Source of the DNA: Burkholderiales bacterium
GTDB taxonomy: Bacteria > Pseudomonadota > Gammaproteobacteria > Burkholderiales > JAHFRG01
Reading direction: 5' to 3'
Length of the DNA: 64,000 nucleotides
NCBI GenBank assembly: GCA_035543335.1
Contig: DASZZH010000028.1
Coordinates: 16,392 to 80,391, forward strand
Part shown: piece after piece, positions 24,692 to 42,235 of the stretch
How positions within the stretch are numbered: position 1 is the first letter of the stretch
Layout: every line of letters starts with the position of its first letter
The notes under the pieces: model-generated
Told to the model about the DNA's origin: nothing
Seen by the model: the letters and a program-made list of their open reading frames with translations, nothing else
The model's database searches: none
Made by a program: the position numbers and the translations under genes

Positions 24692-24792
24692 CTGATGGAA
24701 AAATTCCTGAAGCCGAGGCGCTGGAGCGCGGCATGGAGGAAAAAGCGGTAGAATTCCGGCAGGCGGGTGCTGAGGTGTATCGAAAGCTATGA
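24692..24792 (+). repeat. Chimeric scar: HigA-like 5' fragment fused to thiC 3'-end-like copy R1.4
   Basis: ctgatggaaaaattcctgaagcc|gaggcgctggagcgcggcatggaggaaaaagcggtagaattccggcaggcgggtgctgaggtgtatcgaaagctatga; in the ThiC frame it reads [28 protein letters not shown]. Confidence 0.8.
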
Positions 24793-24823
24793 ACGGAACA
24801 CGGGTCCCGCCCACGGGAGGAGT

Positions 24824-24889
24824 ATGGCGGCAGAACCCGAACAATTAGCGCGTGGAAAAATAGACCAACTGCTCATCGCTGCCAATTGG
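24824..24889 (+). pseudogene. Short 5' fragment resembling the N-terminus of a restriction-enzyme helicase subunit (HsdR-like)
   Basis: MAAEPEQLARGKIDQLLIAANW resembles the E..AR.KID..L..AGW N-terminal motif. Only ~22 codons remain. Confidence 0.35.
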
Positions 24890-25097: not shown

Positions 25098-26540
25098 ATG
25101 TCGAGCAAATCTACATTTTCCCAGCATTTTGGCCTAGATAAGTCCCAAGGCGAGCTCGATTTTGTCGACGTTCCACTGAATAGGGACATCGCCTTATTTG
25201 TAGATCCTTTTGCAATTTCGCAGCGTCCGGATCGGTGGTCGCAAGATTCCCATGCCCATCTCCTAGCATTCTTTCAAAAGGTCGTCGATAGTATTAGGAG
25301 CAACCGCAGTGATGAAGCGCGGAATCTTTTGGCCCATCTCAGGGAGCCCAACGAGACCAGATTCGGTCTTTCGCGCGGGAGGCCTCAAGGAGCCGGCATT
25401 GGTCCAAATCAGGCAGACCGCTTATTCCAGGCACTTCGAGAGTCAAACGCTGTAAAGACTGGATTTCTAAGTTCGCTTGAGGAATGTGAACTGATGATCG
25501 AGGGAATCGGCTGGGACAAGATATCCGATCTTACGACAAACGTCGTTCGGGGCAGGCTAGCAGAGTACACTTTCGATCAATGTCAATTGCACGGCGTCCC
25601 CGTACGTGACGTAGCATTAGGGGCATGTTTCTCTCTTAGCGCCCAAGATTGGGTCAACGAATACCTGCAACTGCCTGTTGTGGGTGGAAAGCCGATTTTG
25701 TTGGTTCCGAAGGCCATAGCGCGCTTCGAACCTTCCTATGATCACCAGCATTACTATCGCCACTTCGCTCTTGAGTTCCTGCAAGCGCAACACCTTGCGG
25801 CTGGCTCGAACCTTGTGCACGCCCTCAAGAATGGAAAACGCAAGGTGTACAAGAAGGATCTGCAAGCCAGATACCCATGCACTAAAGACTATCTTTTTCA
25901 GTTTTCGAAAGAACATCCAGAGGTACTTGTTCGATATCGTCAGCATCTTGAACAGCTGGAAAAACGAGGAATACACAGCATAGTAGAAGAGGACGATGAA
26001 CCAGGCATTGCATCAGCGCTTCGCGCCGCATTGGCGGCAATCCCGCCGGGCAATGCACATGCATCGAGTTACCACAAGCTCATGGTCGGCATCCTTGAAT
26101 TTCTCTTTTTCCCGGCGCTCCTCTGCCCGCGAAAGGAACAAGAGATTCACCAAGGCCGTAAGCGAATTGATGTTTTAATGGAGAACGGAGCAACCATCGG
26201 GATCTTCTATCGTCTCCATGCTACTCGAAAGCTTCCCAGCGCATTTGTGGCCTTCGAGTGCAAGAACTACACGACTGAGATCAACAATCCAGAGCTTGAT
26301 CAAATCGCCGGACGCTTCTCGCCGAATCGTGGCAGGGTTGGCTTCATCTGTTGCCGGCATTTTGAGGACAGGGCGCGCTTCGTTCAAAGGTGCCGGGACA
26401 CCCTCAAGGACGACAGAGGTCTCGTGGCCGCGGTTGACGACGCCACGATCGATTTGTGGCTATCCCTAATTGAGGCCCGTCGACGACGAGACCTTGACTC
26501 TGCTATCGCTAGGGTTATCGACGAGGTATGGATTTCGTAG
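25098..26540 (+). CDS. Uncharacterised 480-aa protein; unknown N-terminal ~330 aa plus C-terminal Mrr/PD-(D/E)xK-like nuclease motif
   Basis: C-terminal pattern ...MVGILEFLF...GRKRIDVLMENG...AFVAFECKNYTTEINNPELDQIAGRF (D358, E387-x-K389; nt 26169-26264). Stop is 31 nt upstream of mod on the same strand. About 50% GC, lower than the backbone. Confidence 0.6.
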   Translation: MSSKSTFSQHFGLDKSQGELDFVDVPLNRDIALFVDPFAISQRPDRWSQDSHAHLLAFFQKVVDSIRSNRSDEARNLLAHLREPNETRFGLSRGRPQGAGIGPNQADRLFQALRESNAVKTGFLSSLEECELMIEGIGWDKISDLTTNVVRGRLAEYTFDQCQLHGVPVRDVALGACFSLSAQDWVNEYLQLPVVGGKPILLVPKAIARFEPSYDHQHYYRHFALEFLQAQHLAAGSNLVHALKNGKRKVYKKDLQARYPCTKDYLFQFSKEHPEVLVRYRQHLEQLEKRGIHSIVEEDDEPGIASALRAALAAIPPGNAHASSYHKLMVGILEFLFFPALLCPRKEQEIHQGRKRIDVLMENGATIGIFYRLHATRKLPSAFVAFECKNYTTEINNPELDQIAGRFSPNRGRVGFICCRHFEDRARFVQRCRDTLKDDRGLVAAVDDATIDLWLSLIEARRRRDLDSAIARVIDEVWIS

Positions 26541-26571
26541 AGATTCAATGTAAAGTGGTAGAACTTTCCCA

Positions 26572-28515
26572 ATGAACGAGAAGATCATTACCAACGAACC
26601 CGAGAGGCTTGATCTACGTTCGCATGAAATCGCGGACGACAGGAAGCAGGAGCTGTTGCGCCTGTTTCCCGAAATCCGCACCGAGGGCGGCAAGCTCGAC
26701 TTCGACCTGCTCGAGCGCGCGCTGGGCGAAACCGTGGACGTGGGCAAGGAACGCTACGGCATGAACTGGCCGGGAAAGGCCGATTGCTACAAGACCATCC
26801 AGATGCCCAGTCTCGGCACGCTGCGCCCGTGCCCGGAGGAAAGCGTCAACTTCGACACTACCGAAAACCTCATCATCGAGGGCGACAATCTGGAAGTGCT
26901 CAAACTCCTGCAGAAGTCATATTTGGGTAAGGTGAAGATGATCTACATCGACCCGCCCTATAACACCGGTAATGATTTTATTTACCCGGACAACTACTCT
27001 GAGTCCCTGCAAACCTACCTGGAATACACCGGGCAGACGGATACCGAAGGGCGGAAGTTCAGTACCAATACGGAAGCGGATGGCCGCTTCCACTCGAAGT
27101 GGCTGAACATGATGTACCCGCGCCTGTATCTAGCGAGGAATCTGTTACGGGAGGATGGCATCGTTTTCATTAGTATCGATGACTTTGAGTATGACAATCT
27201 CAAAAAACTATGCGATGAAGTGTTTGGTGAAGAGAATTTCCTTGAAAACATAATATGGAAAAAACGTTATGGCGGCGGTGCTAAAGAAAAGTTCCTCGTC
27301 TCGGTTCACGAATATATTCTTTGCTACGCTAGGAACCTCGACACAATTGCACCTTTATTCGTTCCACAGACGCAAGAATCTATAGAACGGTACTACACGC
27401 TGAAGGACAAGAACTATGCGCAGCTTGGCCCGTATCGCACCCACCCGCTCGAAGCAACTAAGAGCATGGGTGAAAGAAAGAATCTCGTTTTCCCAATTAC
27501 CGCGCCAGATGGCTCCGCAGTCATGCCGAAGAGACAGTGGTTGTGGTCACGAGAGCGAGTCGATGAAGCGTTAAAAAAAGATGGGCTGGCCTTCCTAAAG
27601 GATAAGGATGGTAACTGGTCGGTACATACAAAGCAATATCTAAAAGACGAGGATGGAAATGTTCGCCAGAGCAAGGCATTTTCGATTATCGATAATGTAT
27701 TCACTCAACACGGCACGAACGAAATATTGAATCTGTTTGGTGACGCCCAAATTTACTCATTTCCAAAACCATCAAAGCTGTTGATACCGCTGCTGAATCT
27801 TGCAACTTCTGAATTAGATTCTATTGTTTTGGATTTTTTTGCCGGCTCTGGTAGCATTGCCCACGCTGTCCTCGACCTGAACAAGCAGGACGGCGGCAAC
27901 CGCAAGTTCATCCTCGTCCAGCTACCCGAGCCACTTGACCCTAATGATAATGCTCAAAAAGCAGCCTATGATTTCTGTAAGGTCAATAATTTTGCAACCA
28001 ACATTGCCGAAATCACCAAGGAGCGCGTCCGTCGTGTTATCAATAAGCTCAGCGACGAAGGTGTGGGCAAGCTCGATCTGGAAGGCGCCACAAAGCAGGA
28101 CCGCGGCTTTCGCGTCTTCAAGCTAAGCGAGTCTAACTTCAAACCATGGAATGCCGAAGTGGCACACGAGGCGAAAGTGCTAGAGCAACAGCTTGAGATG
28201 CACGTCGATCACTTCCGTGAGGGCCGTACGGCCGAGGATCTACTCTACGAGATCCTGCTCAAAAGTGGCTTTGCGCTTACCACGCCGGTCGAAACGCTCA
28301 CGCTTGCGGGCAAGGCCGTGCATAGCGTCGCGAGCGGTGCGCTTTTCATTTGCCTAGAGCGCGAACTGACGCTCGAACTCGTTCGCGCGATGGCTGACAA
28401 GAAACCCGAGCGCGTGGTCTGCCTCGACGAAGGTTTCGCCGGCAACGATCAGCTCAAGGCCAACGCCGTCCAGCTCTTCAAGACTAAGGGCGTCACCAGT
28501 TTCAAGACGGTGTGA
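26572..28515 (+). CDS. mod: Type III restriction-modification DNA methyltransferase (Mod), N6-adenine, beta-class motif order
   Basis: 647 aa; motif IV IYIDPPYNTGNDF (about 26950) precedes motif I DFFAGSGS (about 27835), with a long variable region between. Confidence 0.92.
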   Translation: MNEKIITNEPERLDLRSHEIADDRKQELLRLFPEIRTEGGKLDFDLLERALGETVDVGKERYGMNWPGKADCYKTIQMPSLGTLRPCPEESVNFDTTENLIIEGDNLEVLKLLQKSYLGKVKMIYIDPPYNTGNDFIYPDNYSESLQTYLEYTGQTDTEGRKFSTNTEADGRFHSKWLNMMYPRLYLARNLLREDGIVFISIDDFEYDNLKKLCDEVFGEENFLENIIWKKRYGGGAKEKFLVSVHEYILCYARNLDTIAPLFVPQTQESIERYYTLKDKNYAQLGPYRTHPLEATKSMGERKNLVFPITAPDGSAVMPKRQWLWSRERVDEALKKDGLAFLKDKDGNWSVHTKQYLKDEDGNVRQSKAFSIIDNVFTQHGTNEILNLFGDAQIYSFPKPSKLLIPLLNLATSELDSIVLDFFAGSGSIAHAVLDLNKQDGGNRKFILVQLPEPLDPNDNAQKAAYDFCKVNNFATNIAEITKERVRRVINKLSDEGVGKLDLEGATKQDRGFRVFKLSESNFKPWNAEVAHEAKVLEQQLEMHVDHFREGRTAEDLLYEILLKSGFALTTPVETLTLAGKAVHSVASGALFICLERELTLELVRAMADKKPERVVCLDEGFAGNDQLKANAVQLFKTKGVTSFKTV

Positions 28516-28525
28516 ACCGTATGCG

Positions 28526-31504
28526 ATGAAGCTCCAATTCGACGCCAATCAACAGTTCCAGCTCGATGCCGTCGCGGCCGTCACGGATCTCTACGACGGT
28601 CAGCCGCAGGGCGCGCCGGAGTACGCCGTGATCGACATGGGCACTGGAATGGGCCTGTTTACCGGCCAGCAGCAGACCGAGCTGGGCGCAGGCAATCAGT
28701 TGCTGGTGGCGGAGGACAAGCTGTTGGCGAACACTCGCGCTCTTCAGACCCGCAATGACATTGAGGTTTCCGACCCAAAGGCGGCGCTTGAAACGTGGGA
28801 GCTGTTCGACGGCCCTGCTAACCAGACGCGCCACTGCCCGCACTTCTCGGTGGAGATGGAGACCGGTACCGGCAAGACCTACGTTTATCTGCGCACTATC
28901 TTTGAGCTCTCGCGGCGTTACGGTTTCCAGAAGTTCATTATCGTGGTGCCGACCGTGGCGATCCGAGAAGGTGTGCTGAAGAACATCGAAATCACCGCCG
29001 ATCATTTCCGCGCGCTTTACAACAACCTTCCCTTCGAGCACTTCGTCTACGACGCACGGAAGGTCAACCGGCTGCGGCAGTTTGCGACCAGCAACACGCT
29101 GCAGATCCTGGTTATCAACATCGACGCTTTCCGCAAGAATTTCACTGGCACTGAGGAAGAACAGAAGAGCAACGTGATCTATAAGGAAAGCGACAAGCTC
29201 TCAGGCCGGCAGCCGATTGAGTTCGTGCAGGCGGCGCGTGCTGTCGTAATCATCGACGAGCCGCAGAGCGTGGACAGTACCGACAAGGCGCAGGAGGCGA
29301 TCAAGGCGCTTAACCCGCTGTGCACGCTGCGCTACTCCGCCACGCACCGCAACCCGTACAACCTGGTGTACCGGCTCGATCCGGTGCGCGCTTTCGAGCT
29401 GAAGCTAGTCAAGCAAATCGTAGTGGCGAGCGCGGCGGCGGACGGAGCGGCAAACGATGCTTTCGTGCGCGTGGAAAAAATTGACTATAAAAATGGCATC
29501 AAGGCCAAGCTGCGCATTCATGTGCAGGGAACAAGTGGGCCGAAGGAGAAATCCGTTATGGTGAAAAATGGCGCGGACCTCCTTACCCTTTCGAATGAGC
29601 GGGCCTGCTACGCGCAGGGGTTTTCCGTGGCCGAGATCAACGCCGAGCCGGGCAGCGAGTTCGTGCGCTTCAGCAATGGCCGGACGTTGCGCCTCGGCGA
29701 GGAAACGGGCGGCATGCGTGAGGACGTGTGGCGCACCCAGATCAAGCACACGGTGAAGCGGCACATGGAGAAAGAGCTGCAGCTGAAAGCCCGCGGCATC
29801 AAGGTGCTCAGTCTCTTTTTCGTCGACCGGGTGGCCAACTACCGCGACTACGACGCGGCAGGCCAGCCGGTGAAGGGCAAGTTCGCCAAGGTGTTCGAAG
29901 CAGAACTTGCAGCGCTGGCAAAGGACGAACGCTTCCGCGAACTGGAGTGGCTCAAGCAACCAATGGACAAGCTCCATAACGGCTACTTTGCCCAGGACAA
30001 GAAGGGCGTGCTCAAGGACACGCGCGGCGACACACAGGCCGACGACGAGGTCTACAACCTTATTATGAAAGAGAAGGAGCGCCTGCTTTCTCTGGATGAA
30101 CCGCTGCGCTTCATCTTCAGCCACTCGGCGCTGCGCGAAGGCTGGGACAACCCGAATGTGTTTCAAATCTGCACGCTCAATGAAACCCGAAGCGCGGTGA
30201 AGAAGCGGCAGGAAATCGGTCGCGGCATGCGTCTGCCGGTGGACCAGAACGGCCTGCGCGTCTTTGACGAGTCGGTGAACAAGCTCTATGTCATGGCCAA
30301 CGAGAGCTACGAGGATTTCGCCCGCGCCTTGCAGACTGAGTACGAAGAAGAATGCGGCGTAACCTTCGGCAAAGTGCCGCTCACTGCGCTTGCCAAAATC
30401 ATTCGGGTGGTGGACGGCGAAGAACGCCCGATTGGGCATGAGGCGGCGGTCACGATACGAGACGCGTTAGTGAATCAGAAGATGCTCGACATAGAGGGGC
30501 GCATCCAGCCGGTGTTCGACCCGAAGCGCAAGGACTTCGAACTGGAACTGCCGGAGGCACATCGTGAGTTGGCGCCGGCAGTCATTGATCTGCTCGCGAC
30601 GTATCAGATCGAACGGCACATTCGCCGGGAGCGGGATGACGGGCCCAACCTGCTCAAGAAGGAGGTCACGCTCAGCCCGGAATTCCAGGCACTTTGGGAT
30701 CACATCAAGCCGAAGACGACCTTTCGGGTGGAGTTCGAAACCGAGAAGCTGGTCACACGGGCAGTCGATGAGCTAAAGCGCATGGAGAAAATCGAGATCC
30801 CCAAGATTCATGTCATCACGGGAAAAGTAGAGGTTACGAAGGGTGGCGTTACAACGAGGGCCACGGGTGCGGCCCAGGAACTAGCTAGTTACAGCTCGCG
30901 CCCCATACCTGACGTACTTGCCTACCTGCAGAACGAAACCGAGCTGACGCGATCAACACTGGTCCGCATCCTCAAGGAATCGGGACGGCTCGTTGAGTTT
31001 TTCAACAATCCGCAGCGATTCATGGATGCCATGGTAGCGATTCTCAAGCATGAGTTGCACCGCCTGCTGGTGGATGGTATCAAGTACGAGCGGATCGATG
31101 GCACGGGCTCGGAAGCGGAGTGGGAGATGCTGCTCTTCAAGAACGAGGAGCTGATTAACTATCTGACGGCGCTGCAGGTGAACAAGTCGGTCTACGAGTA
31201 TGTGGTCTACGACTCGGAGGTGGAGCGCGAGTTCGCCAAGCGTCTCGACCAGCGCGAGGACATCAGGCTCTTCGTGAAGTTACCCGGCTGGTTCGAGATC
31301 GACACTCCTGTGGGCAAGTACAATCCTGACTGGGCCATTGTGAAGCACGACAACCAAACGCTTTACCTTGTGCGCGAAACCAAAGGCACTAAAGATTTCA
31401 TGAACCTCCGCACCAGCGAGGCGGACAAGGTGCGATGCGGGCAGAAGCACTTCGAGACATTAGGTGTTCCGTTTGCTGTGGCAGTCACGGCAGACGAGGT
31501 ATGA
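28526..31504 (+). CDS. res: Type III restriction enzyme Res subunit (helicase-nuclease)
   Basis: 992 aa; Walker A METGTGKTY, DEAH-variant VVIIDEPQS, SALREGWDNPNVF, C-terminal PD...ExK nuclease (YNPDWAIV...LYLVRETKG). Confidence 0.92.
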   Translation: MKLQFDANQQFQLDAVAAVTDLYDGQPQGAPEYAVIDMGTGMGLFTGQQQTELGAGNQLLVAEDKLLANTRALQTRNDIEVSDPKAALETWELFDGPANQTRHCPHFSVEMETGTGKTYVYLRTIFELSRRYGFQKFIIVVPTVAIREGVLKNIEITADHFRALYNNLPFEHFVYDARKVNRLRQFATSNTLQILVINIDAFRKNFTGTEEEQKSNVIYKESDKLSGRQPIEFVQAARAVVIIDEPQSVDSTDKAQEAIKALNPLCTLRYSATHRNPYNLVYRLDPVRAFELKLVKQIVVASAAADGAANDAFVRVEKIDYKNGIKAKLRIHVQGTSGPKEKSVMVKNGADLLTLSNERACYAQGFSVAEINAEPGSEFVRFSNGRTLRLGEETGGMREDVWRTQIKHTVKRHMEKELQLKARGIKVLSLFFVDRVANYRDYDAAGQPVKGKFAKVFEAELAALAKDERFRELEWLKQPMDKLHNGYFAQDKKGVLKDTRGDTQADDEVYNLIMKEKERLLSLDEPLRFIFSHSALREGWDNPNVFQICTLNETRSAVKKRQEIGRGMRLPVDQNGLRVFDESVNKLYVMANESYEDFARALQTEYEEECGVTFGKVPLTALAKIIRVVDGEERPIGHEAAVTIRDALVNQKMLDIEGRIQPVFDPKRKDFELELPEAHRELAPAVIDLLATYQIERHIRRERDDGPNLLKKEVTLSPEFQALWDHIKPKTTFRVEFETEKLVTRAVDELKRMEKIEIPKIHVITGKVEVTKGGVTTRATGAAQELASYSSRPIPDVLAYLQNETELTRSTLVRILKESGRLVEFFNNPQRFMDAMVAILKHELHRLLVDGIKYERIDGTGSEAEWEMLLFKNEELINYLTALQVNKSVYEYVVYDSEVEREFAKRLDQREDIRLFVKLPGWFEIDTPVGKYNPDWAIVKHDNQTLYLVRETKGTKDFMNLRTSEADKVRCGQKHFETLGVPFAVAVTADEV

Positions 31505-31631
31505 GAGATAAGAATGGGTGCGATCATGGGGGAGTAAAAATAGGCTCAGATTCGATTTCTGAGTTACGGCCTGTGATCCTTGCACTCCGGAGTGCCGCTT
31601 GGTGCGCGAGGCAAATGTTCCTCACACCGGT

Positions 31632-31735
31632 GTGAGAATATGACAGACATTGAAATCATCACCTCGCAGCAAAAACCTACCGAGGGGATGGTGACGCTGA
31701 CCCATGTCATCTACGCGCTGCACGCTTTCAGCGCG
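31632..31735 (+). repeat. R2.1: truncated copy of the 5' end of the membrane-protein gene at 39527
   Basis: gtgagaatATGacagacattgaaatcatcacctcgcagcaaaaacctaccgaggggatggtgacgctgacccatgtcatctacgcgctgcacgctttcagcgcg encodes MTDIEIITSQQKPTEGMVTLTHVIYALHAFSA, cf. resident MGIDIPQSKPTEGMVTLTHVIYGLHAFSA. Confidence 0.85.
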
Positions 31736-31812
31736 ACGCGGGTCAGTAGCTTCGATTAACCAACGATGGTGTAAATGAGCGCTCAGAACATTATGAAGTG
31801 GTTCATTGACCC

Positions 31813-31927
31813 GCTGGCATCCGCTCCGCGGTCGCGTCCCCACTGTGCGGGGCCCCTGCTCCGCGCTTCGCGTCGCAACCATTCGTTATGGCGACTATTC
31901 TTCGACTTCGCTCAGGACAGGCTCTGA
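31813..31927 (+). repeat. R3.1: conserved GC-rich leader element upstream of fic
   Basis: gctggcatccgctccgcggtcgcgtccccactgtgcggggcccctgctccgcgcttcgcgtcgcaaccattcgttatggcgacta...gctcaggacaggctctga; copies at 35267 and 36424. Confidence 0.75.
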
Positions 31928-31938
31928 GCAGTTGACGC

Positions 31939-32577
31939 ATGACTAATCGTTACCAAGCCCGTGGGATTGAGGCGGAATTCGAGCCTGGCTCACGTGGACG
32001 CGTTCTGCAGAATCTGCTTGGTGTTAAGTCGACCCGAGAGATGGCGCGGCGCGAATCAGAAGCGCTCCTTGTCACGACCCGGCAATTGATTGACGATACA
32101 CGCTCGGACCAGAGATTCACCTCGGAGGACGTCCGGCGGATACATAGGTTATGGTTTGGGGAAATTTATGCGTGGGCTGGGCAATATCGGCACGTCAACA
32201 TTGCCAAGGGCGATTTCATGTTCGCCGCAGCCAGCGAAGTATCTCGGTTGATGCGGGAGTTCGAGCGCGGACCGTTGCATGAATTTACGCCCTGCCGATT
32301 CGCGCCCCATGAGGAACAAGCGCGTGCTTTGGCAGTGGTGCACGCTGAGCTAATCCTGATCCATCCTTTCCGCGAAGGAAACGGTCGTTGCGCGCGCCTG
32401 CTCTCCGTGCTGATGGGGTTGCAGGCAGGATTGCCGGCCCTGGACTTTGTTGGAGTTCGTGGGGATGAAAAGCAACGTTACATTGCCGCCGTCCACGCCG
32501 CTATGGACCGCGACTATGAACCTGATGACCATAGTATTTCGAAAGATTATTGCCCGCACATTGCGGTCACAGGCTAG
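31939..32577 (+). CDS. fic: Fic-domain protein (AMPylase-type toxin), C-terminal frameshift likely
   Basis: 212 aa; Fic motif HPFREGNGRCARLL. After DYEP (about 32520) the paralog-like C-terminus LMTIVFRKIIARTLRSQARAWRG* continues in another frame to 32593. Confidence 0.85.
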   Translation: MTNRYQARGIEAEFEPGSRGRVLQNLLGVKSTREMARRESEALLVTTRQLIDDTRSDQRFTSEDVRRIHRLWFGEIYAWAGQYRHVNIAKGDFMFAAASEVSRLMREFERGPLHEFTPCRFAPHEEQARALAVVHAELILIHPFREGNGRCARLLSVLMGLQAGLPALDFVGVRGDEKQRYIAAVHAAMDRDYEPDDHSISKDYCPHIAVTG

Positions 32578-32792
32578 GGCTTGGCGCGGTTAGAGCGGGC
32601 TTTGCTGACGGGTACTTTACGGCTGCTTGAAACTAATTCATGTTTTCCGACATCGAGCGCCATTTGTTTAAAAGGTGCATGGATGCCTTCAATCGCCGAC
32701 GAGCTGGCAACGGAATTGAACAGCATCCGCTCGCGAATGACGGCGTCTAGCAGATAGGGATTACTAGCGGAAAGTTTTGCACCCATATACAA
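32574..32792 (-). CDS. VbhA-like Fic antitoxin candidate (convergent with fic)
   Basis: 72 aa; ...NSVASSSAIEGIHAPF contains the Fic-inhibitory (S/T)xxxE(G/N) motif. Its 3' end overlaps the fic 3' end. Confidence 0.55.
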   Translation of the reverse strand: MYMGAKLSASNPYLLDAVIRERMLFNSVASSSAIEGIHAPFKQMALDVGKHELVSSSRKVPVSKARSNRAKP

Positions 32793-32823
32793 ATTATAAC
32801 AGTTATAGACTCAAATTATAAGT

Positions 32824-32852
32824 TATGAACAGCGCAACTATCGTCCAAAAAC
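32824..32852 (+). pseudogene. First ~10 codons of a type I R-M hsdM-like gene
   Basis: atgaacagcgcaactatcgtccaaaaactt = MNSATIVQKL, matching the longer fragment at 36292 and the HsdM N-terminal pattern. Confidence 0.45.
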
Positions 32853-32904
32853 TTTCACGGAGACAGTATCGGAGACAGAGGAGACAGGATCAGGGCTTGA
32901 ATTA

Positions 32905-33003
32905 TCAGTTTTCAATTGTGACATTCTTCCTTTGGGCGTGAGAATATGACAGACATTGAAATCATCACGTCGCAGTCAAAACCTACTGAGGAGATGGTGA
33001 CGG
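32905..33003 (+). repeat. R2.2: truncated copy (upstream region plus first ~20 codons)
   Basis: ...tcagttttcaattgtgacattcttcctttgggcgtgagaatATGacagacattgaaatcatcacgtcgcagtcaaaacctactgaggagatggtgacgg; homology ends earlier than in the other copies. Confidence 0.8.
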
Positions 33004-33021
33004 TTGGCTAGCCAAAACTGT

Positions 33022-33441
33022 TCAGAGCTTACCCACCGCTTCGTAAAAAGCCAGAATTCTGGGCGCAGTAAAGCGGGATTCAGTCAAACCGTGGCAGACG
33101 CGGGCAAATATTTCTTCACCTAACATTCCCTTGGGCGAAAGTACGCCGTGCTTCACACCGTCAACGAGCTTCTGCGACGCTTCAATGCGCGCCTCCGCGT
33201 AGTACACGTAGCTCTTGTGCCGGATGAATGGATGGTCGCCTGCGTACAATTCGCATGCCGGATCGTGTGGGATACCCTCTTGGATGGTGCTTACACCGAC
33301 GAACAGTGAATGCTTCGCGTCGTAGTTAAGGACCTGAGCCGGATCGGTCAGGAGAATGAAAAGGTGTTTTTGGTCGGGATCATGTGCCGGTCCTGACGGG
33401 ACGAGCAATGTCGCCCGCCGATAGGGCACAAACAACTTCAC
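33022..33441 (-). CDS. Hypothetical 139-aa protein, candidate toxin partner of the Panacea-domain antitoxin
   Basis: ATGA overlap with the upstream DUF4065 gene. I recognise no family. Loose resemblance to SH3-barrel (MazF/CcdB-like) toxins is speculative. Confidence 0.4.
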   Translation of the reverse strand: MKLFVPYRRATLLVPSGPAHDPDQKHLFILLTDPAQVLNYDAKHSLFVGVSTIQEGIPHDPACELYAGDHPFIRHKSYVYYAEARIEASQKLVDGVKHGVLSPKGMLGEEIFARVCHGLTESRFTAPRILAFYEAVGKL

Positions 33442-33992
33442 AAGCTCGCGAAGAGCTTATCGATGTGGCGCTGCTGTTCGACCCGTGCTCCCAGCTTTCG
33501 AGCTTCGGCGGGGCTGCGGCCAAGCGCCTTGAATATTTCCTCGTAACTGATGGGAATGGACGACCCGTTCGGGTCTTGCCATTCACGGCAGTAACGGTGG
33601 ATATACTTCACCAAATCCCATTGGTTCACCTTACCGAATTTGGCGAAGACATCGCGAAGAACATCGATGTCAGCATTGCTCAGTTCATCGAGTACTTCTC
33701 GTGTGGCCCTTCGCCTGAGCGATACGGCGTAATCGGCTTTGTCGGCGATCCAGTGATCCCAGCCACGCTCTTGAAACTTCACCGCACCATTGATGAGATT
33801 GAGTGTATTGGATAGCACGGGTCCGTGATCCATGGAAACATAGCGGTCGCCTGAAATCGGGTGTCCGTGACGCTTCATAGATTCTCGATCCGCGAGATAC
33901 AGAAGCTTCATCAGCTTCAGGTATTTCATGCGGGTCCTAGCGTGATTGAGAAGGTACGCCGCCATTTGGGCGACTCGCCGCTCGTTAAACAT
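33438..33992 (-). CDS. Panacea-domain (DUF4065, SocA/PanA-like) antitoxin
   Basis: 184 aa; AAYLLNHARTRMKYLKLMKLLYLADRESMKRHGHPISGDRYVSMDHGPVLSNT matches the DUF4065 pattern. Confidence 0.75.
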   Translation of the reverse strand: MFNERRVAQMAAYLLNHARTRMKYLKLMKLLYLADRESMKRHGHPISGDRYVSMDHGPVLSNTLNLINGAVKFQERGWDHWIADKADYAVSLRRRATREVLDELSNADIDVLRDVFAKFGKVNQWDLVKYIHRYCREWQDPNGSSIPISYEEIFKALGRSPAEARKLGARVEQQRHIDKLFASL

Positions 33993-34089
33993 GGTTCCCC
34001 CGTGCTTCAGGTCCAGAGTTCGGTTGACGAGAATTGCCTGTAGTAACCATGGACGGTTAGATTATAGCCAAGTTCCCTGGATTTAGGTA

Positions 34090-34272
34090 AATAATGGCAG
34101 GCAAAAATGCGGTCGGAGTCATTTTGTTGAATAACAATCTCGCTGTAGGCGTGAGGATATGGCAGACATTGAAATCATCGCATCGCAGTCAAAACCCACC
34201 GAGGGGATGGTGACGCTCACCGATGTCATCTACGCGCCGCACGCTTTCAGCGCGCTGATGGGGGTGCTCGGG
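34090..34272 (+). repeat. R2.3: copy including ~60 bp upstream region and first ~38 codons
   Basis: aaataatggcaggcaaaaatgcggtcggagtcattttg...gtgaggatATGgcagacattgaaatcatcgcatcgcagtcaaaacccaccgaggggatggtgacgctcaccgatgtcatctacgcgccgcacgctttcagcgcgctgatgggggtgctcgggc. The ORF it opens (34159-34377) ends in ATGA on the vapB start. Confidence 0.85.
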
Positions 34273-34373
34273 CTGATCTTCAGCAGGTCGTTGGGCGGCT
34301 TCACGGTCTTCGGCGTTTCCCGAAGCCCTTGGTCAGATTTGCAGAATTTCTGCATTTCTGATAAACTGCAATC

Positions 34374-34616
34374 ATGAAAACCACTCTTACCATGACCAGC
34401 CGCGGCGTGGTGACACTACCCGCCAAGCTCCGTCTCGCGCTCGGCCTCAAGCCCGAAGATCATCTCATCGCTGAGACAACGCCGGAGGGTCTGCTGCTAC
34501 GTCCGGCAGTTACCCTTCCAGTGGAGGTCTACACCGACAAGCGAATCCGCGAGTTCGACGAGGCCGAAGCGGATCTCGGCAAGTTCCTTCGCCGCAAGAA
34601 GAAGCCCGCCCGCTGA
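34374..34616 (+). CDS. vapB: AbrB/MazE(SpoVT)-type antitoxin VapB
   Basis: 80 aa; MTSRGVVTLPAKLRLALGLKPEDHLIAETTPEGLLLRP. Confidence 0.8.
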   Translation: MKTTLTMTSRGVVTLPAKLRLALGLKPEDHLIAETTPEGLLLRPAVTLPVEVYTDKRIREFDEAEADLGKFLRRKKKPAR

Positions 34617-34624
34617 CGCCGCGG

Positions 34625-35044
34625 ATGCGGATTTTCCTCGACGCGAACATCCTGTTTTCCGCCGCCAAGTCCGACGGCGCCGTGAGGCGGCTCGTGGACT
34701 TGCTCATCGCGGCCGGTCATGAATGCTGGGTGGACGGCTACGTGACGGAGGAAGCGCGGCGCAACATCGCCGTGAAGTTCCCAGACGGCATGGCTGCCCT
34801 CGACTTGCTCTTGTCGCGCGTACATGTAGCGGCCATCCACGCTCCCGATGCGGCGCTCGAAGGCACGCTGCCGCTGCCGGAAAAGGACCGGCCGGTGCTC
34901 GCCGCGGCGATCCACCATAGTTGCCAAGCATTGGTCACGGGCGATCGCACGCATTTCGGCCGCCTCTATGGCAAGACCATTCATGGTGTGACGATTCACT
35001 CCCCGCTCTCGCTCGCGGAAGCGCTGCTCAATGTAAGGCGGTAA
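34625..35044 (+). CDS. vapC: PIN-domain toxin VapC
   Basis: 139 aa; MRIFLDANILFSAA...EKDRPVLAAAIHHSCQALVTGDRTHF. Confidence 0.8.
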   Translation: MRIFLDANILFSAAKSDGAVRRLVDLLIAAGHECWVDGYVTEEARRNIAVKFPDGMAALDLLLSRVHVAAIHAPDAALEGTLPLPEKDRPVLAAAIHHSCQALVTGDRTHFGRLYGKTIHGVTIHSPLSLAEALLNVRR

Positions 35045-35189
35045 AAAAGCAAATAATGCGGGCGGAGTCGTTTTCACGAGCAATGTGGATGTGAGAATAT
35101 GACAGACAATCATCACATCGCAGTCAAAACCCACAGAGGGCATGGTGACGCTCACCCATGTTATCTACGCGCTGCATGCTTTCAGCGCG
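35044..35189 (+). repeat. R2.4: copy with upstream region; carries an internal 8-nt deletion in the leader ORF
   Basis: aaaaagcaaataatgcgggcggagtcgttttcacgag...gtgagaatATGacagacaatcatcacatcgcagtcaaaacccacagagggcatggtgacgctcacccatgttatctacgcgctgcatgctttcagcgcg. Confidence 0.85.
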
Positions 35190-35266
35190 ACGCGGGTCAG
35201 TAGCCTTGATTAACCGACGATGGTGTCAATGAGCGCTCAGAACATTATGAATTGGTTCATTGACTC

Positions 35267-35405
35267 GCTGGCATCCGCTCCGCGGTCGCATCCCCACTGT
35301 GCGGGGCCCCTGCTCCGCGCTTCGCGTCGCAACCATTCGCTATGGCGACTATCCTTCAGCTGCGCTCAGGACAGGCCCTTCGGTTGCGCTCAGGACAGGC
35401 TCTGA
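35267..35405 (+). repeat. R3.2: conserved leader element upstream of the second fic
   Basis: Near-identical to R3.1 apart from a 24-nt internal duplication (gcgctcaggacaggcccttcggtt). Confidence 0.75.
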
Positions 35406-35416
35406 ACAGTTGACGC

Positions 35417-36067
35417 ATGACTAATCGTTACCAAGCCCATGGGATTGAGGCGGAAATCGAACCTGACTCACGCAGGCGGGTGTTGCGAAACCTTCTGGGT
35501 ATCACGCGCGTACGGGACATGCAGGCTGCGGAATCGCAGGCGCTGCATCTTGCACAGGCGCAGGCAATAGAGACTGTGTCTGATAACCAGCGATTTACCG
35601 CAGCCGATATTTGTCGGCTGCATAGGCTGTGGCTCGGTCCGATTTACGCTTGGGCCGGGGAGTACCGTACCGTGAATCTCGGCAAGGGAGGATTTCAGTT
35701 TGCCAATGCAGAGTTGATCCCCGCGTTGATGGAAGAACTGGAGCGTAAGGTACTGCAAAAGTACACGCCGTGTTTAGCGGCACCCGATGAGGCCATTGCC
35801 GAAGCACTAGCCATCGTGCATGCTGAGCTGGTCCTGGTTCATCCGTTTCGTGACGGCAACGGGCGATTGGCACGGCTGCTCGCGCTTCTCATGGGACTTC
35901 AGGCAGGATTACCACCGCTGGATTTTTCGTCCCTGGACGGGCGCGGCAAGCGTCTTTACATCGCGGGAATCCACGCCGCGATGGGGCACGACTACAGCAC
36001 GTTGATCGGGATGTTCCGAAGAGTTATCGACCGGACTTGGAAGCGTGTTTCTTCCAATAGTCGATAA
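35417..36067 (+). CDS. fic: Fic-domain protein (AMPylase-type toxin)
   Basis: 216 aa; Fic motif HPFRDGNGRLARLL; about 55-60% identical by eye to the 31939 paralog. Confidence 0.9.
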   Translation: MTNRYQAHGIEAEIEPDSRRRVLRNLLGITRVRDMQAAESQALHLAQAQAIETVSDNQRFTAADICRLHRLWLGPIYAWAGEYRTVNLGKGGFQFANAELIPALMEELERKVLQKYTPCLAAPDEAIAEALAIVHAELVLVHPFRDGNGRLARLLALLMGLQAGLPPLDFSSLDGRGKRLYIAGIHAAMGHDYSTLIGMFRRVIDRTWKRVSSNSR

Positions 36068-36215
36068 GGGCTTGCGCCGTGGGTGGTTGCCAGGCGTGCG
36101 GGCCGAAGGGATGGCGGATGCCTTCGATCGCAGAGGAAGTCTTAGCCGATACCCAAAGGGCTGCCTTGGCTTGGCCGGGAGACCTCAGGAATCGATTGGA
36201 TTTTGCGAGCTTCAT
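36024..36215 (-). CDS. VbhA-like Fic antitoxin candidate (convergent; 44-nt 3' overlap with fic)
   Basis: Likely start M32 of the track ORF (36215): MKLAKSNRFLRSPGQAKAALWVSAKTSSAIEGIRHPF... with the (S/T)xxxE(G/N) motif. Confidence 0.55.
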   Translation of the reverse strand: MKLAKSNRFLRSPGQAKAALWVSAKTSSAIEGIRHPFGPHAWQPPTAQALIDYWKKHASKSGR

Positions 36216-36291
36216 AATAAATATTTTACCCTTCATGGAGTGAAATGACCACTCTGATTGAGCCTCTGCGGCAGATTCGCATGGGCAGCCT

Positions 36292-36354
36292 ATGAATACC
36301 GCGACCATCGTCCAAAAGCTCTGGAACTACTGCAACGTCCTGCGTGACGCGGGT
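36292..36354 (+). pseudogene. 5' fragment (~21 codons) of a type I R-M methyltransferase gene (hsdM-like)
   Basis: MNTATIVQKLWNYCNVLRDAG matches the conserved HsdM N-terminal motif (…VQKLWNxCNxLRDDG…); the sequence then degenerates. Confidence 0.6.
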
Positions 36355-36423
36355 CCGTTCGGTTTTGCTGGATCATCGGAAGTATCGAGTTGCGAGCAGT
36401 TCAATAAGGTAGCCAAATGACCC

Positions 36424-36506
36424 GCCAGCATCCGCTCTGCAGTCGCATCCCGCAGGCGGGTCCCTGCTCCACGCTTCGCGGCGCAAGAATTCGCTACGGC
36501 GACTAC
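36424..36506 (+). repeat. R3.3: diverged third copy of the leader element
   Basis: ccagcatccgctctgcagtcgcatcccgcaggcgggtccctgctccacgcttcgcggcgcaagaattcgctacggcgacta. Confidence 0.6.
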
Positions 36507-36542
36507 GTCGAGCAGCGCGTCCATAATGTTCCTCGTGCCGGC

Positions 36543-36646
36543 GTGAGAATATGACAGACATTGAAATCATCACATCGCAGACAAAACCTACCGAAGGGAT
36601 GGTGACGCTCACCCATGTCATCTACGCCCTACACGCTTTCAGCGCA
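36543..36646 (+). repeat. R2.5: truncated copy of the membrane-protein gene 5' end
   Basis: gtgagaatATGacagacattgaaatcatcacatcgcagacaaaacctaccgaagggatggtgacgctcacccatgtcatctacgccctacacgctttcagcgca. Confidence 0.85.
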
Positions 36647-36731
36647 CTAAATACTCAGGGGGCCGAGTAATATCGTAGTCGCTTCAAATATAAATCGTCT
36701 CTGACCGCCAGTAATCCTTCCGAGCGCGGCG

Positions 36732-37526
36732 CTAGTCTGCGGTATAGCCTTGGATCTCGGTCTGGGTGTAGCGCATTTGTTCTTCCATGACCAATTTCGA
36801 CAGTTCCTTTTTCAGCGCGTTGAATTCCGCGCTCGCACTGTCGCGCGGGCGCGGCATCGCGATACGCACGTCGCGCTTGATGGTGCCGGGCCGGTAAGTC
36901 ATCACCGCCACGCGGTCGGCCAGGTAAACGGATTCTTCGATGCTGTGAGTGACGAAGACGATGGTTTTCCGGTACTCGTCCCAGATGCGCAGCAATTCGT
37001 CTTGCAAGGTGTGGCGGGTCAAGGCGTCGAGCGCGCCGAAAGGCTCATCCATCAGCATGATCGGCGAGTCGAGCGCCAGCACGCGGGCGATCGCCACACG
37101 CTGGTTCATGCCGCCGGAGAGGTCCTTGGGAAAACGCTCGCGAAACTCGTAGAGGTTGAGTTTGCGCAGGAGCCTGTCCACTTTCCCGTTCATTTCTGCC
37201 TTGGGCAAGCGCTTTATCTCGAGGCCGAAGCGGATGTTCTGCGCTACCGTCATCCAGGGAAACAAGGCGTATTCCTGAAACACCATGCCGCGGTCGGGGC
37301 CCGGAAACCTGGCGGCATCCGCCCTGCCGTTGATGGCGATGCTGCCGCTGGTCGGGGGTGAAAAACCGGCGATGGCATTGAGCAGGGTGGATTTGCCGCA
37401 GCCCGACGGCCCCAGCAGACAAACGAACTCGCCCTCTCCGACATCAAGATTGATGTCTTTCAGCGCAATGACTTCACCCCCCGGGACCGGAAAACTCTTA
37501 TTGACGTTTTCGATATGGATGAACAT
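36732..37526 (-). CDS. ABC transporter ATP-binding protein (nitrate/sulfonate/taurine NitT family)
   Basis: 264 aa; Walker A GPSGCGKST, signature LSGGMNQRVAIARVLA, Walker B IMLMDEPFGALD. Confidence 0.9.
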   Translation of the reverse strand: MFIHIENVNKSFPVPGGEVIALKDINLDVGEGEFVCLLGPSGCGKSTLLNAIAGFSPPTSGSIAINGRADAARFPGPDRGMVFQEYALFPWMTVAQNIRFGLEIKRLPKAEMNGKVDRLLRKLNLYEFRERFPKDLSGGMNQRVAIARVLALDSPIMLMDEPFGALDALTRHTLQDELLRIWDEYRKTIVFVTHSIEESVYLADRVAVMTYRPGTIKRDVRIAMPRPRDSASAEFNALKKELSKLVMEEQMRYTQTEIQGYTAD

Positions 37527-37538
37527 CGCCGCTATCCA

Positions 37539-38366
37539 TTAATTCTGGTCGATACCGCGGTGCCACTTGAGCAGCCAGTTGTTCAGGCCGTTCATGAAGA
37601 AGTCGATACCCAGCCCGAGCAAGCCGATGGTGAACATTCCCGCGATGATCTTGTCCGACCACAAGTATTCGCGAGCCTCAAGGATGCGGTAGCCGAGACC
37701 GCTGTTCACCGCGATCATCTCCGCGACAATCACCACGATGAACGCCGTGCCGATGCCGATGCGCATGCCGGTGAGAATGTACGGCATTGCCGCCGGCACG
37801 ATCACCCGGCGGAACAGGGTCATCTGGCCTGCGCCCAGATTGCGCGCCGCGCGCAGATAGATTCCGTCCACGTGCCGCACGCCCGCAATGGTATTCATCA
37901 ACACCGGAAAGAAAGCACCGATGCTGATCAGGAAAAAAGCCGGCGGGTTGCCCAGACCAAACCAGAGGATGGCAAGGGGTATATAAGCGATGGGTGGAAT
38001 GGGCCGCAGCACTTGTACCAGCGGATTGAACAAGCCGTAAAGCTTGTTGCTGGCACCCATCAGCAGACCGAGGGGCAGCGCAAGCAGCGTGCCGATCAGG
38101 AACCCGCCCACCACTCGCGACAGGCTTGCGAGAGCGTCGTGCGGCAGCTCGCCCGAAACCAGCCACAAGGCGTAACTGCCTCCGCTGTAAGAAGCAGTGG
38201 GCCGCAAGTACTCCCACCACTTGGCAACCACCTGCGTAGGTGACGGCAGTATCTGCGGGTTGACCCAGCCGCTCATCGCCAAGAACTGCCACAGCGCCAA
38301 GACCGCAACGGGAATGACGACACCCCTGGCGAAGTTCAGGATGCCTCTGAAATAAGCTACTCCCAT
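37539..38366 (-). CDS. ABC transporter permease (SsuC/TauC-like)
   Basis: 275 aa, multi-TM, binding-protein-dependent transport inner-membrane pattern; sits between the ATPase and the binding protein. Confidence 0.88.
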   Translation of the reverse strand: MGVAYFRGILNFARGVVIPVAVLALWQFLAMSGWVNPQILPSPTQVVAKWWEYLRPTASYSGGSYALWLVSGELPHDALASLSRVVGGFLIGTLLALPLGLLMGASNKLYGLFNPLVQVLRPIPPIAYIPLAILWFGLGNPPAFFLISIGAFFPVLMNTIAGVRHVDGIYLRAARNLGAGQMTLFRRVIVPAAMPYILTGMRIGIGTAFIVVIVAEMIAVNSGLGYRILEAREYLWSDKIIAGMFTIGLLGLGIDFFMNGLNNWLLKWHRGIDQN

Positions 38367-38375
38367 GACCCGCCT

Positions 38376-39350
38376 TTACTTGACCTTCAACTCGGCCTTG
38401 GCTTTTTCCAGCAGGTCGAGCTTCACCCAATCTTTCGCCGCCGGGGCATTGGCGCCCATCTTGCCCACGCCATATTTCTGCATCAGATCAGTGGTGATCT
38501 GGACGTGCTCGACCGTGAGATCATAGGTGTAGGGCGAATTAGCAATCGCATCTTTGAAGTCCTGCGAGGTGATCTGATTCTTAAACATTTGCTCGCGCAC
38601 GTACTTCTCGGCCACCTCCGGCTTCGCGATGAACAAGGCCGTAGCCTCGACGAATACGTTAAGCAGCTTCTGCGCCACCTGCGGGCGTTCCTTGTAAAGC
38701 TTCTCGGTGATCACGAGAGAACGGATCGGCTCGCCCATGGGCGTGTCGTAAGGCTTAATCACCTCTATACCGAACCCCTTGTTGATAGCCTGGGAGGACT
38801 GAGGTTCGGATTGGCACATGGCGTCGATGTCCTTGCCCAGCAGCGCCTGGTTGAGATCGGCGTAGGCAAGGTAAACGATTTGCACGTCCTTGCCCGGCTT
38901 TTCCGACCAAGTGAGCCCCGCCTTGCTTAGCTCGGCGAAGAGCAGCAGCTCGTGCGCACCGCCGCGCGCGACTCCCACTGTCCTGCCTTTCAGGTCGGCC
39001 ACTGATTTGATCGCCAAGTCGCTGCGAGCGACGATCCGCGCGCCGCCCTTGGCGAAGCCGGCGACGGCATAAATCGGCACACCCTGCGTGCGCCCCGCAA
39101 TCGCCCCATCCAGCGCGCTCGCCGCGGCATCAATCTCACCGGCAATAATGGCCGGCAAGATGTCGATGCCCTTCGCGAACATGCGTTCTTCGATTTTGAG
39201 CCCGTATTTGGGCGCGATCTCCTTCATATAGGAAACCGCACCGTAGTGAGCAAACTTCAGATTGCCTAATCGGACTACATCTTCAGCCGATGCGTTACCC
39301 GCCGTCACGGCGCCGCATACCAGCAGCGCCCACCCCATTTTTCTCAACAT
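38376..39350 (-). CDS. Periplasmic substrate-binding protein (SsuA/TauA/NMT1-like)
   Basis: 324 aa with signal peptide MLRKMGWALLVCGAVTAGNASA; operon context. Confidence 0.8.
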   Translation of the reverse strand: MLRKMGWALLVCGAVTAGNASAEDVVRLGNLKFAHYGAVSYMKEIAPKYGLKIEERMFAKGIDILPAIIAGEIDAAASALDGAIAGRTQGVPIYAVAGFAKGGARIVARSDLAIKSVADLKGRTVGVARGGAHELLLFAELSKAGLTWSEKPGKDVQIVYLAYADLNQALLGKDIDAMCQSEPQSSQAINKGFGIEVIKPYDTPMGEPIRSLVITEKLYKERPQVAQKLLNVFVEATALFIAKPEVAEKYVREQMFKNQITSQDFKDAIANSPYTYDLTVEHVQITTDLMQKYGVGKMGANAPAAKDWVKLDLLEKAKAELKVK

Positions 39351-39526
39351 ATATTCTCCTTTGGCTCAAGCCAGCGCGAGTTTGGCATTATTTTACAACT
39401 TTATGTTCTTTTGGCCCAACCGCCCGCGGAAGCGCGGCTCAATATAAGGCGATGAAAAAGCAAATTATGGGGCTAGAGTCATTTTCTTGAGTGACATTTT
39501 CGCAGTGGAGTGAGAACATAACAGAC

Positions 39527-39931
39527 ATGGGCATCGACATACCGCAGTCAAAACCTACCGAGGGGATGGTGACGCTCACCCATGTCATCTACGGCCTTCA
39601 CGCCTTCAGCGCGCTGATGGGGATGCTCGGGCCGGCGTTTATCGTGACGGCGTTTCTCACCGGCTGGCCGTCCATCATCGCGGTCATCATCAATTACGCG
39701 AGGCGCTCGGACGTACGCGGCACGTATCTCGATTCGCACTTCGGCTGGCAAATCCGCACTTTCTGGTATGCGCTGTTGTTAGTGGTGATCGTAGGAGTAC
39801 TCATCTTCACCGTCCTCGGCATCCCGTTTGCCTGGATGCTGGCCATTATCGCCGGACTCTGGGTGATTTACCGCATCACCCGCGGCTGGATCGCGCTCAT
39901 CAACAGCGAGCCGATGCCGGTGCCGAGCTAG
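39527..39931 (+). CDS. Small integral membrane protein (COG3671/DUF4870-like, tentative); resident copy whose 5' end is repeated five times upstream
   Basis: Track ORF starts at GTG 39491; ATG 39527 preferred by analogy with the repeat copies. MGIDIPQSKPTEGMVTLTHVIYGLHAFSALMGMLGPAFIV...YLDSHFGWQIRTFWYALLL..., 3-4 TM helices. Confidence 0.6.
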   Translation: MGIDIPQSKPTEGMVTLTHVIYGLHAFSALMGMLGPAFIVTAFLTGWPSIIAVIINYARRSDVRGTYLDSHFGWQIRTFWYALLLVVIVGVLIFTVLGIPFAWMLAIIAGLWVIYRITRGWIALINSEPMPVPS

Positions 39932-41669: not shown

Positions 41670-41987
41670 TCAGATTCCAGTAAAAACCAAGTCGAGCGCA
41701 GCGATGATTGCGTTGCGTTGGCTTGAAAGATTGTCAATCCGCTTACCGAGAATTTTTGCCGGCACGCCCGCCAGTTCGGGTGTCAGCATCATTAGTCTCT
41801 TTCCCTCAATTTCATATACAGGATTAAGTCGATCTGCTGCCTTACCCTTGAGTACATCGGGTTTGCAAAGCGGGACGACAACCCGCGTCGCCAGCGGCTC
41901 GCGCAAATCCAACTGAACATCGAGCAGGTAGGGAATGCGGGCGCGGGTTGCGGGATTCGAGTTGCGGTAGACGTCAAACTGCGCCAT
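41670..41987 (-). CDS. ccdB: CcdB-family toxin (gyrase poison)
   Basis: 105 aa; [25 protein letters not shown]...RVVVPL...LNPVYEIEGKRLMMLTPELAGVP. Confidence 0.88.
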   Translation of the reverse strand: MAQFDVYRNSNPATRARIPYLLDVQLDLREPLATRVVVPLCKPDVLKGKAADRLNPVYEIEGKRLMMLTPELAGVPAKILGKRIDNLSSQRNAIIAALDLVFTGI

Positions 41988-42235
41988 TAAAACGAACGCA
42001 ATCCATCGCTGAATACGCCGTGCTTGTCAACGTATTCGTTGTAAGCTTCGATTGCGGCACGGTTTTTCTTCAGCCATTCCTCGCGCTGGCGCTGGCGGAT
42101 GGCTTCGCTCAGGCCGGTCTCGAATATCTGCGACTGGTTGAGCTTGAGGCGCTTGGCCCTTTCCAGCAGGTCGATGTCGACGCTGAGGTTCGCTGCTTTT
42201 TTGCGCGAGCGTAGAGCGCGGGTTCGGGTGAGCAT
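41987..42235 (-). CDS. ccdA: CcdA-family antitoxin
   Basis: Likely start M11 (42235); ...[55 protein letters not shown]; 1-nt overlap with ccdB. Confidence 0.8.

Follow-up and report, generated by a model that had tools for sequence, protein, structure and literature searches.

A Panacea antitoxin gene paired with a sequence-orphan, predicted MazF-fold toxin gene in a repeat-bounded cassette of a Burkholderiales genome

On a contig of a Burkholderiales bacterium (DASZZH010000028.1, assembly GCA_035543335.1), two short genes overlap by a few nucleotides (nt): one encodes a protein with a Panacea domain (DUF4065), as found in antitoxins, and the other a protein of 139 amino acids (aa). The question raised by this locus is what kind of toxin, if any, the second protein represents, and a first-pass annotation, made from the DNA letters, had proposed that it may be a new toxin class. 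We analyzed the pair within a window of 64,000 nt (positions 16,392 to 80,391 of the contig, forward strand), to which all coordinates refer unless stated otherwise. Our analysis makes it quite probable that the two genes form a type II toxin-antitoxin module, PanAT, with a toxin of MazF fold that probably acts by RNA cleavage, and that the module is a repeat-bounded cassette within an island. The elements of the pair are the following.

33438–33992, minus strand: panA, 184 aa, ATG start; a stand-alone Panacea-domain antitoxin gene without N-terminal helix-turn-helix (HTH) or PAD1 domain.
33022–33441, minus strand: panT, 139 aa, GTG start; predicted MazF/PemK-like fold, assigned to toxin cluster T6.
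33438–33441, minus strand: GTGA overlap, in which the panA stop TGA overlaps the panT start GTG, as read from the sequence.
33993–34132, minus strand: non-coding region upstream of panA, which we infer to be a putative promoter.

The overlap between the stop codon of panA and the start codon of panT had first been given as ATGA. Its length of 4 nt is correct, but its letters read GTGA, and panT therefore begins with GTG. The last panA codons, GCG AGC TTG TGA, are overlapped by GTG AAG TTG TTT with 4 nt in common, and the translation of the 139-aa open reading frame (ORF) begins MKLFVPYRRATLLVPSGPAHDPDQKHLFILLTDP, identical to the one given earlier. Because the homologues align from residue 1 and an RTGA overlap is kept in all 15 of the 15 aligned homologous panA/panT junctions, we regard this GTG as the real panT start. 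The GTGA overlap implies translational coupling of panA and panT. Comparison with four homologous loci gave ratios of nonsynonymous to synonymous change (pN/pS) of 0.10–0.23 for panA and 0.10–0.30 for panT, showing that both genes are under purifying selection. Taken together with the recurring arrangement of a Panacea gene upstream of the toxin gene, these ratios place the pairing of panA and panT far beyond chance. Upstream of panA, a perfect TATAAT at 34066–34061 and a weak -35 element, TTACCT, separated by an 18-nt spacer, were read by hand as a putative promoter, and a Shine-Dalgarno-like run, GGGGGA, precedes the panA ATG; a sigma-70 consensus scanner called no promoter upstream of panA. 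A terminator-like hairpin across the panA stop and the panT start was also considered as a regulatory element and was dropped because it is not conserved in the 15 homologous junctions.

Residues 27–139 of PanA match Pfam PF13274 (SocA_Panacea) over all 113 model positions (E 1.8e-25; 90.4 bits against a cut-off of 25.7), and this full-length match confirms the DUF4065/SocA type that had been recognized in the 33438–33992 ORF. PanA also matches phrog_1281, a PHROG family of unknown function (E 1e-31). Beyond the Pfam domain, PanA has a conserved C-terminal extension (residues 140–184), with the motif EWxDPxGSSxPI at the domain's end. Within this segment, which is followed by predicted helices, E137, W138, D140, P141, G143, S144, S145, and I148 are invariant among 20 cognate PanAs. 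Membership of the pair in SocAB was examined and rejected: PanA scored 24.8 bits against the NCBIfam SocA equivalog NF047745, for which the cut-off is 190, and its partner is MazF-like in predicted fold.

Gene order was then compared by script over 60 loci of PanT homologues, 55 of which came from scanning a single genome for each species; 57 of the 60 have a toxin ORF. A PanA homologue lies directly upstream of PanT in 52 of the 57, most commonly at a spacing of -4, which agrees with the antitoxin-toxin pairing proposed in the first-pass annotation and with a bicistronic cassette. The loci lacking an upstream PanA mostly have little or no DNA upstream or a toxin gene cut by the contig end. 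For three homologues lying on long contigs, the gene directly before the toxin gene encodes a Panacea protein and overlaps it by 4 nt, and the outer neighbors of these three pairs are mutually unrelated. Hosts include beta-, gamma-, and alphaproteobacteria as well as other bacteria. The pair is furthermore found on plasmids and in temperate phages, among them E. coli phage Lys8385Vzw, where it adjoins the integrase; it is always annotated as hypothetical. In one locus, that of Oceanospirillum beijerinckii DSM 7166 (L058, positions 3001–3450), the toxin homologue is interrupted after 64 codons and panA is intact, a possible case of a decayed toxin with a retained antitoxin.

The PanT protein (HVS27133.1, from a Burkholderiales metagenome-assembled genome, MAG) had been described as unassignable, and at the level of sequence this holds: it has no match in Pfam, NCBIfam, PADLOC, or the PDB sequences, the latter searched with phmmer and with the family profile. 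It matches phrog_19071, again a PHROG family of unknown function (E 2e-21). Public data contain 203 close homologues of 133–146 aa, none of which has a name, and the database entries of family members always read 'hypothetical protein'. The family is large, comprising at least 2,462 clusters (50% identity): of 1.84 billion representatives scanned with HMMER, that many matched at E ≤1e-3, and 940 did so at E ≤1e-10.

The predicted structure of PanT gives the clue that sequence searches do not. An AlphaFold2 model based on an alignment of 22 family sequences reached a mean predicted local distance difference test (pLDDT) score of 85 and a predicted template modeling (pTM) score of 0.79. It consists of four beta-strands (residues 11–15, 27–30, 44–52, and 77–88), a helix (89–97), a fifth strand (101–106), and two C-terminal helices (109–121 and 127–138), an order which we take to resemble the MazF arrangement. 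When the model was compared with the PDB using Foldseek, the top 50 matches were all toxins of the MazF/PemK/EndoA group, from E. coli, B. subtilis, S. aureus, M. tuberculosis, B. cereus, B. anthracis, and D. radiodurans (probability 0.94–1.00; TM-score normalized to the target 0.52–0.65; best E 8e-4). In the viral library BFVD, entries named 'PemK-like protein' were prominent among the top matches. The model thus predicts that PanT adopts the SH3-like barrel of MazF/PemK with C-terminal helices. No match to a non-toxin family arose, so that the toxin-antitoxin reading holds and only the novelty of the toxin falls. Across 128 diverse family members, H26, H70, and G118 are invariant and L13, L27, D60, C63, F72, S77, Y81, and S122 are kept at ≥90%. 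In a non-significant hhalign alignment, PanT H26 stands against MazF H28, L27 against R29, and S51/T52 against T52/T53; position 52 is S or T in 22 of the 22 aligned family sequences. From these sequence comparisons, the active site of PanT may differ from that of classical MazF.

A survey of DUF4065/Panacea gene neighborhoods has sorted the partners into 88 toxin clusters (Kurata et al., 2022; PMC8832971; PNAS 119:e2102212119), and the PanT of the window can be connected to one of them, T6. The T6 representative is the pair of Pseudomonas moraviensis LMG 24280 (PanA WP_083354365.1, PanT WP_083201923.1), a locus with a stand-alone ('noNTD') PanA, antitoxin gene before toxin gene, and a gap of -1 (Kurata et al., 2022; Dataset S1). 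Expressed in E. coli, this PanT was toxic, and its PanA relieved the toxicity; the toxin also pulled down PanA, i.e., formed a complex with it, and selectively blocked 35S-Met incorporation, i.e., inhibited translation (Kurata et al., 2022). The tests that had been suggested for the locus, namely arabinose-induced toxicity, PanA rescue, and metabolic labeling, have hence already been done on the P. moraviensis toxin (PMC8832971). The validated PanTs of P. moraviensis and B. ruminantium both lack a CDD match but resemble RNases of the EndoA/PemK/MazF group in HHpred (Kurata et al., 2022).

The connection to T6 runs through accessions. Among our loci, L051 is from Chimaeribacter coloradensis 2016-Iso4, and an exact-sequence look-up identified its PanT homologue as WP_101821906.1. 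In Dataset S1 of Kurata et al. (2022), this accession is the T6 toxin of 'Yersiniaceae bacterium 2016Iso4', listed with the antitoxin first and a gap of -1. In L051, the PanA end and the start of the PanT homologue fall on one base, 3004, and this spacing agrees with the listed gap. The PanT of the window is 40% identical to WP_101821906.1 over 135 residues (BLASTP, E 6e-32). Similarly, the T6 locus of O. beijerinckii DSM 7166 (gap -4) is our L058, which was recovered independently as a PanT homologue. By this accession-level link between sequences, we assign the window PanT to T6. The label 'pT6' appears 57 times in the copy of Dataset S1 examined. The P. moraviensis toxin WP_083201923.1 was not among the 402 proteins retrieved by three protein searches and a representative search; its termini, as given by the published primers, are MPGNIL... 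and ...IRQNNF (Kurata et al., 2022).

The pair had further been described as one complete cassette between R2.2 and R2.3. Its flanks are indeed formed by two copies of a direct repeat.

32921–33002, plus strand: repeat copy on the panT side of the cassette; repeat family D2, found by alignment and pattern search.
34133–34253, plus strand: repeat copy on the panA side of the cassette; repeat families D1 and D2.

The repeat is 80–120 nt long and occurs in six copies, at 31614, 32921, 34133, 35068, 36525, and 39492 (window 31614–39612); a pattern search returned six matches where zero were expected by chance. Every copy corresponds to the upstream region and the first ~25–35 codons (M(T/A)DIEIITSQSKPTEGMVTLTHVIYALHAFSA...) of a gene for a 146-aa membrane protein, which is intact only at 39491–39931. 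Between the copies lie five cassettes, in the order Fic, PanAT, MazE-like plus PIN, a second Fic, and an ATP-binding cassette (ABC) transporter. The repeat matched no Rfam family and no tRNA, an attC-like palindrome was not seen by eye, and no integrase was found among the ORFs scanned. The array looks as if a single gene had undergone serial site-specific insertion, or recombination, at its 5' end.

A contig from a related Burkholderiales MAG (L006; DATDGC010000064.1) shows how the array varies. The PanAT cassette (window 32892–34211) is 93.6% identical there, and across L006 1–3550 (compared with window 32892–38872) it directly abuts the segment with the ABC transporter, which matches window 36679–38872 at 96% identity. 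L006 lacks window 34212–36678 and, with it, the cassettes of MazE-like/PIN and of the second Fic gene. Of the two ends of the shared unit, 34211 lies inside the repeat copy 34133–34253 and 32892 lies ~29 nt outside the copy 32921–33002. Because L006 lacks two cassettes and the junctions fall in or beside the repeat, PanAT is a complete cassette, and cassettes are gained and lost individually; the comparison also means that the cassette content of the array varies between close relatives.

Over window 33022–34099, the comparison with L006 also reveals a mosaic, in which divergence changes abruptly where panA meets panT. The promoter and panA region differs at 4 positions in ~650 nt (pS 0.024), with 34000–34099 identical, whereas panT differs at 34 positions in 420 nt (pS 0.26). 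This break in divergence suggests either recombination, which swapped the toxin allele or homogenized panA, or a chimera of MAG assembly.

Several results weigh against the reading of PanAT as a type II module with an RNA-cleaving MazF-fold toxin. None of the sequence-based methods that were run ties PanT to MazF. Pfam PF02452 (PemK_toxin) was matched by two of the 128 diverse family members, with a best E of 0.11, and the window PanT gave no PemK_toxin match at E up to 5. Using hhalign, the PanT family profile aligned with E. coli MazF, or with a profile of four MazF sequences (E. coli MazF, B. subtilis EndoA, Kid, and S. aureus MazF, each identical to a PDB chain), at a probability <1%, and the family profile found zero matches among the PDB sequences. 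Because these sequence methods miss it, the tie between PanT and MazF is one of fold and not of demonstrable sequence homology, and the Foldseek E-values are marginal (~1e-3) and the TM-scores moderate. PanT shows no evident counterpart of R29, the canonical catalytic Arg of E. coli MazF. The distance between the window PanT and the validated P. moraviensis toxin is known only via their shared cluster membership. Since eight of the 25 PanTs assayed by Kurata et al. (2022) were non-toxic in E. coli, toxicity of the window PanT is not guaranteed. Finally, the model of PanA, built on a four-sequence alignment, has a pLDDT of 47, which is too poor to show the mode of neutralization.

It is conceivable, although we do not consider it likely, that the T6 PanTs are a branch of the MazF fold with a mechanism of their own, in which an invariant pair of His26 and His70, assisted by Asp60, Cys63, and perhaps a bound metal, replaces the Arg/Thr pair and a different RNA target is cleaved or modified, and that in addition toxin alleles are exchanged behind a nearly unchanged panA. 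Such an exchange is suggested by the sharp divergence break at the panA/panT junction between the two Burkholderiales MAGs.

We judge it unlikely that PanT has a MazF/CcdB-type fold but a target other than RNA, be it as a gyrase poison like CcdB, through another partner, or by metal- or His-dependent chemistry. CcdB and MazF have one fold, and for T5, a related cluster that is also MazF-like, HHpred gives a score of 98% to CcdB (Kurata et al., 2022; Dataset S1). The failure of sequence profiles to detect MazF would fit such a toxin, as would the conserved residues, given that the MazF catalytic Arg is not evidently kept and that the invariant H26 and H70, with the near-invariant D60 and C63, could form a metal site or another active site. 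However, the 50 best structural matches include zero CcdB, and the validated T6 member selectively inhibits translation and not replication (Kurata et al., 2022).

Quite unlikely, in our view, is that the pair is a module of phages or mobile elements and not a toxin-antitoxin system, with PanT a non-toxic regulatory or accessory protein and Panacea a sensor or an adaptor for a protease. The PHROG families of PanA and PanT are both of unknown function, the pair is found in temperate phages, and some T6 members carry the annotation 'terminase' in Dataset S1 (Kurata et al., 2022); to this can be added the PanTs that were non-toxic in E. coli and the mainly sensory role proposed for Panacea by Ernits et al. 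(2023; PMC10440598). Against these points stands a member of the same cluster that is toxic and is neutralized through complex formation (Kurata et al., 2022). The layout is furthermore that typical of toxin-antitoxin modules, with small genes, the antitoxin first, and a conserved 4-nt overlap, and the pair occurs in mobile contexts and, in the window, next to genes that are themselves toxin-antitoxin modules.

That PanT represents a truly new class of toxin without relation to known families, as the first-pass annotation had supposed, is very improbable: the lack of any Pfam, NCBIfam, PADLOC, or PDB sequence match and the uniform naming as 'hypothetical protein' would fit it, but the confident model has a MazF-like fold, with MazF-family proteins as all 50 top PDB matches, and the family has been described before, as PanT cluster T6, one representative of which is validated (Kurata et al., 2022).

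Under the favored reading, a type II module with a MazF-fold toxin, panA and panT would be co-transcribed from the minus strand and translationally coupled via the GTGA overlap. PanA would bind PanT directly and hold the toxin inactive. Loss or inactivation of PanA, whether by loss of the cassette, by proteolysis, or upon a trigger such as phage infection, would release PanT, and free PanT would most likely arrest growth through inhibition of translation. As an endoribonuclease on a MazF scaffold, it would probably cleave mRNA, tRNA, or rRNA. The cassette could plausibly stabilize the array or act in abortive infection. The chemistry of PanT as an RNase, its trigger, and its biological role are all inferred here.

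Among characterized systems, the closest is PanAT of P. moraviensis. Both pairs have a stand-alone ('noNTD') Panacea antitoxin gene first and a toxin gene that overlaps it by 1–4 nt, both toxins lack a CDD/Pfam match and have a MazF/PemK/EndoA-like predicted structure, and the PanA N-termini are similar (MFNERRVAQ in the window, MIFSEQKVAQ in P. moraviensis). Unlike the P. moraviensis pair, that of the window comes from a Burkholderiales MAG, sits in a repeat-bounded cassette within an array, and is known from sequence alone. With MazF, PemK, Kid, and EndoA (Pfam PF02452; partners MazE, PemI, and Kis), PanT shares predicted fold and size, the type II logic with the antitoxin gene first, and translation as its target, which was demonstrated with the T6 representative. 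It differs from them in having no significant sequence similarity. Moreover, the antitoxin is a Panacea protein and not a MazE/PemI of the AbrB/SpoVT or ribbon-helix-helix (RHH) type, the PanT model has an extra C-terminal helix (residues 127–138), and PanT conserves H26, H70, D60, and C63 but not the Arg/Thr pair of MazF.

PanA has the same SocA_Panacea domain as SocA of the Caulobacter crescentus type VI system SocAB, the founding DUF4065 antitoxin. The toxin SocB is a DnaN-binding inhibitor of replication that is not known to be related to PanT, and SocA is a ClpXP adaptor. According to Kurata et al. (2022), PanA-type antitoxins, unlike SocA, bind and neutralize their toxins. A parallel to PanT, drawn from published descriptions, is AarT (toxin TD3) of Acinetobacter guerrae in the NetFlax network, whose antitoxin is an AAA ATPase and not, as for PanT, a Panacea protein (Ernits et al., 2023). 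AarT likewise gave no HHpred match and yet has an mRNA-interferase (MazF-like) fold and inhibits translation (PMC10440598). AarT shows that sequence-orphan MazF-fold toxins are a recurrent theme.

The chromosomal array belongs to a toxin-antitoxin and defense island that extends from ~20 to 42 kb of the window, amid housekeeping genes including thiC, lipopolysaccharide (LPS) core genes, glnA, and typA; a thiamine pyrophosphate (TPP) riboswitch of thiC lies at 15970–16115. A type III restriction-modification system, together with a preceding 480-aa ORF (25098–31504 in all), is located immediately upstream of the array. The features of the island outside the PanAT cassette are listed here.

20466–20843: HTH_3 protein.
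22044–23342, minus strand: HipA kinase toxin (E 1.5e-50).
25098–26540: 480-aa ORF preceding the type III system; no Pfam match.
26572–28515: N6_N4 methylase.
28526–31504: ResIII helicase plus endonuclease.
31939–32577 (212 aa) and 35417–36067 (216 aa): Fic/Doc-domain paralogues in separate cassettes.
32574–32792, minus strand: 72-aa ORF, convergent to the first Fic gene; no Pfam match.
34374–35044: MazE/AbrB-type antitoxin (80 aa) and PIN-domain toxin (139 aa), a VapBC-like pair in the neighboring cassette.
41670–42265, minus strand: CcdA/CcdB pair (E 5e-26 and 3e-33).

Each Fic gene is preceded by a further common stretch of ~270 nt (repeat families D3 and D4; 85–92% identical), and no obvious antitoxin gene was identified for either of them. 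A second, unrelated repeat family occurs around HipA, at window 20085–20153, 21389–21476, 23787–23954, and 24725–24873, and at L006 5634–5875.

Because the partner of PanA falls in a large, catalogued family of MazF-shaped toxins, the module is an ordinary find, and outside annotation its significance is small; the questions that follow from it are worthwhile but incremental. For the organism, it is a further toxin-antitoxin module in a dense island of toxin-antitoxin and defense genes that is structured by repeats. For the PanT family, which is covered by no current Pfam, NCBIfam, or PADLOC model, it means that HVS27133.1 and the 2,462 50%-identity clusters matching the family profile could be labeled as Panacea-associated MazF-fold toxins (PanT cluster T6).

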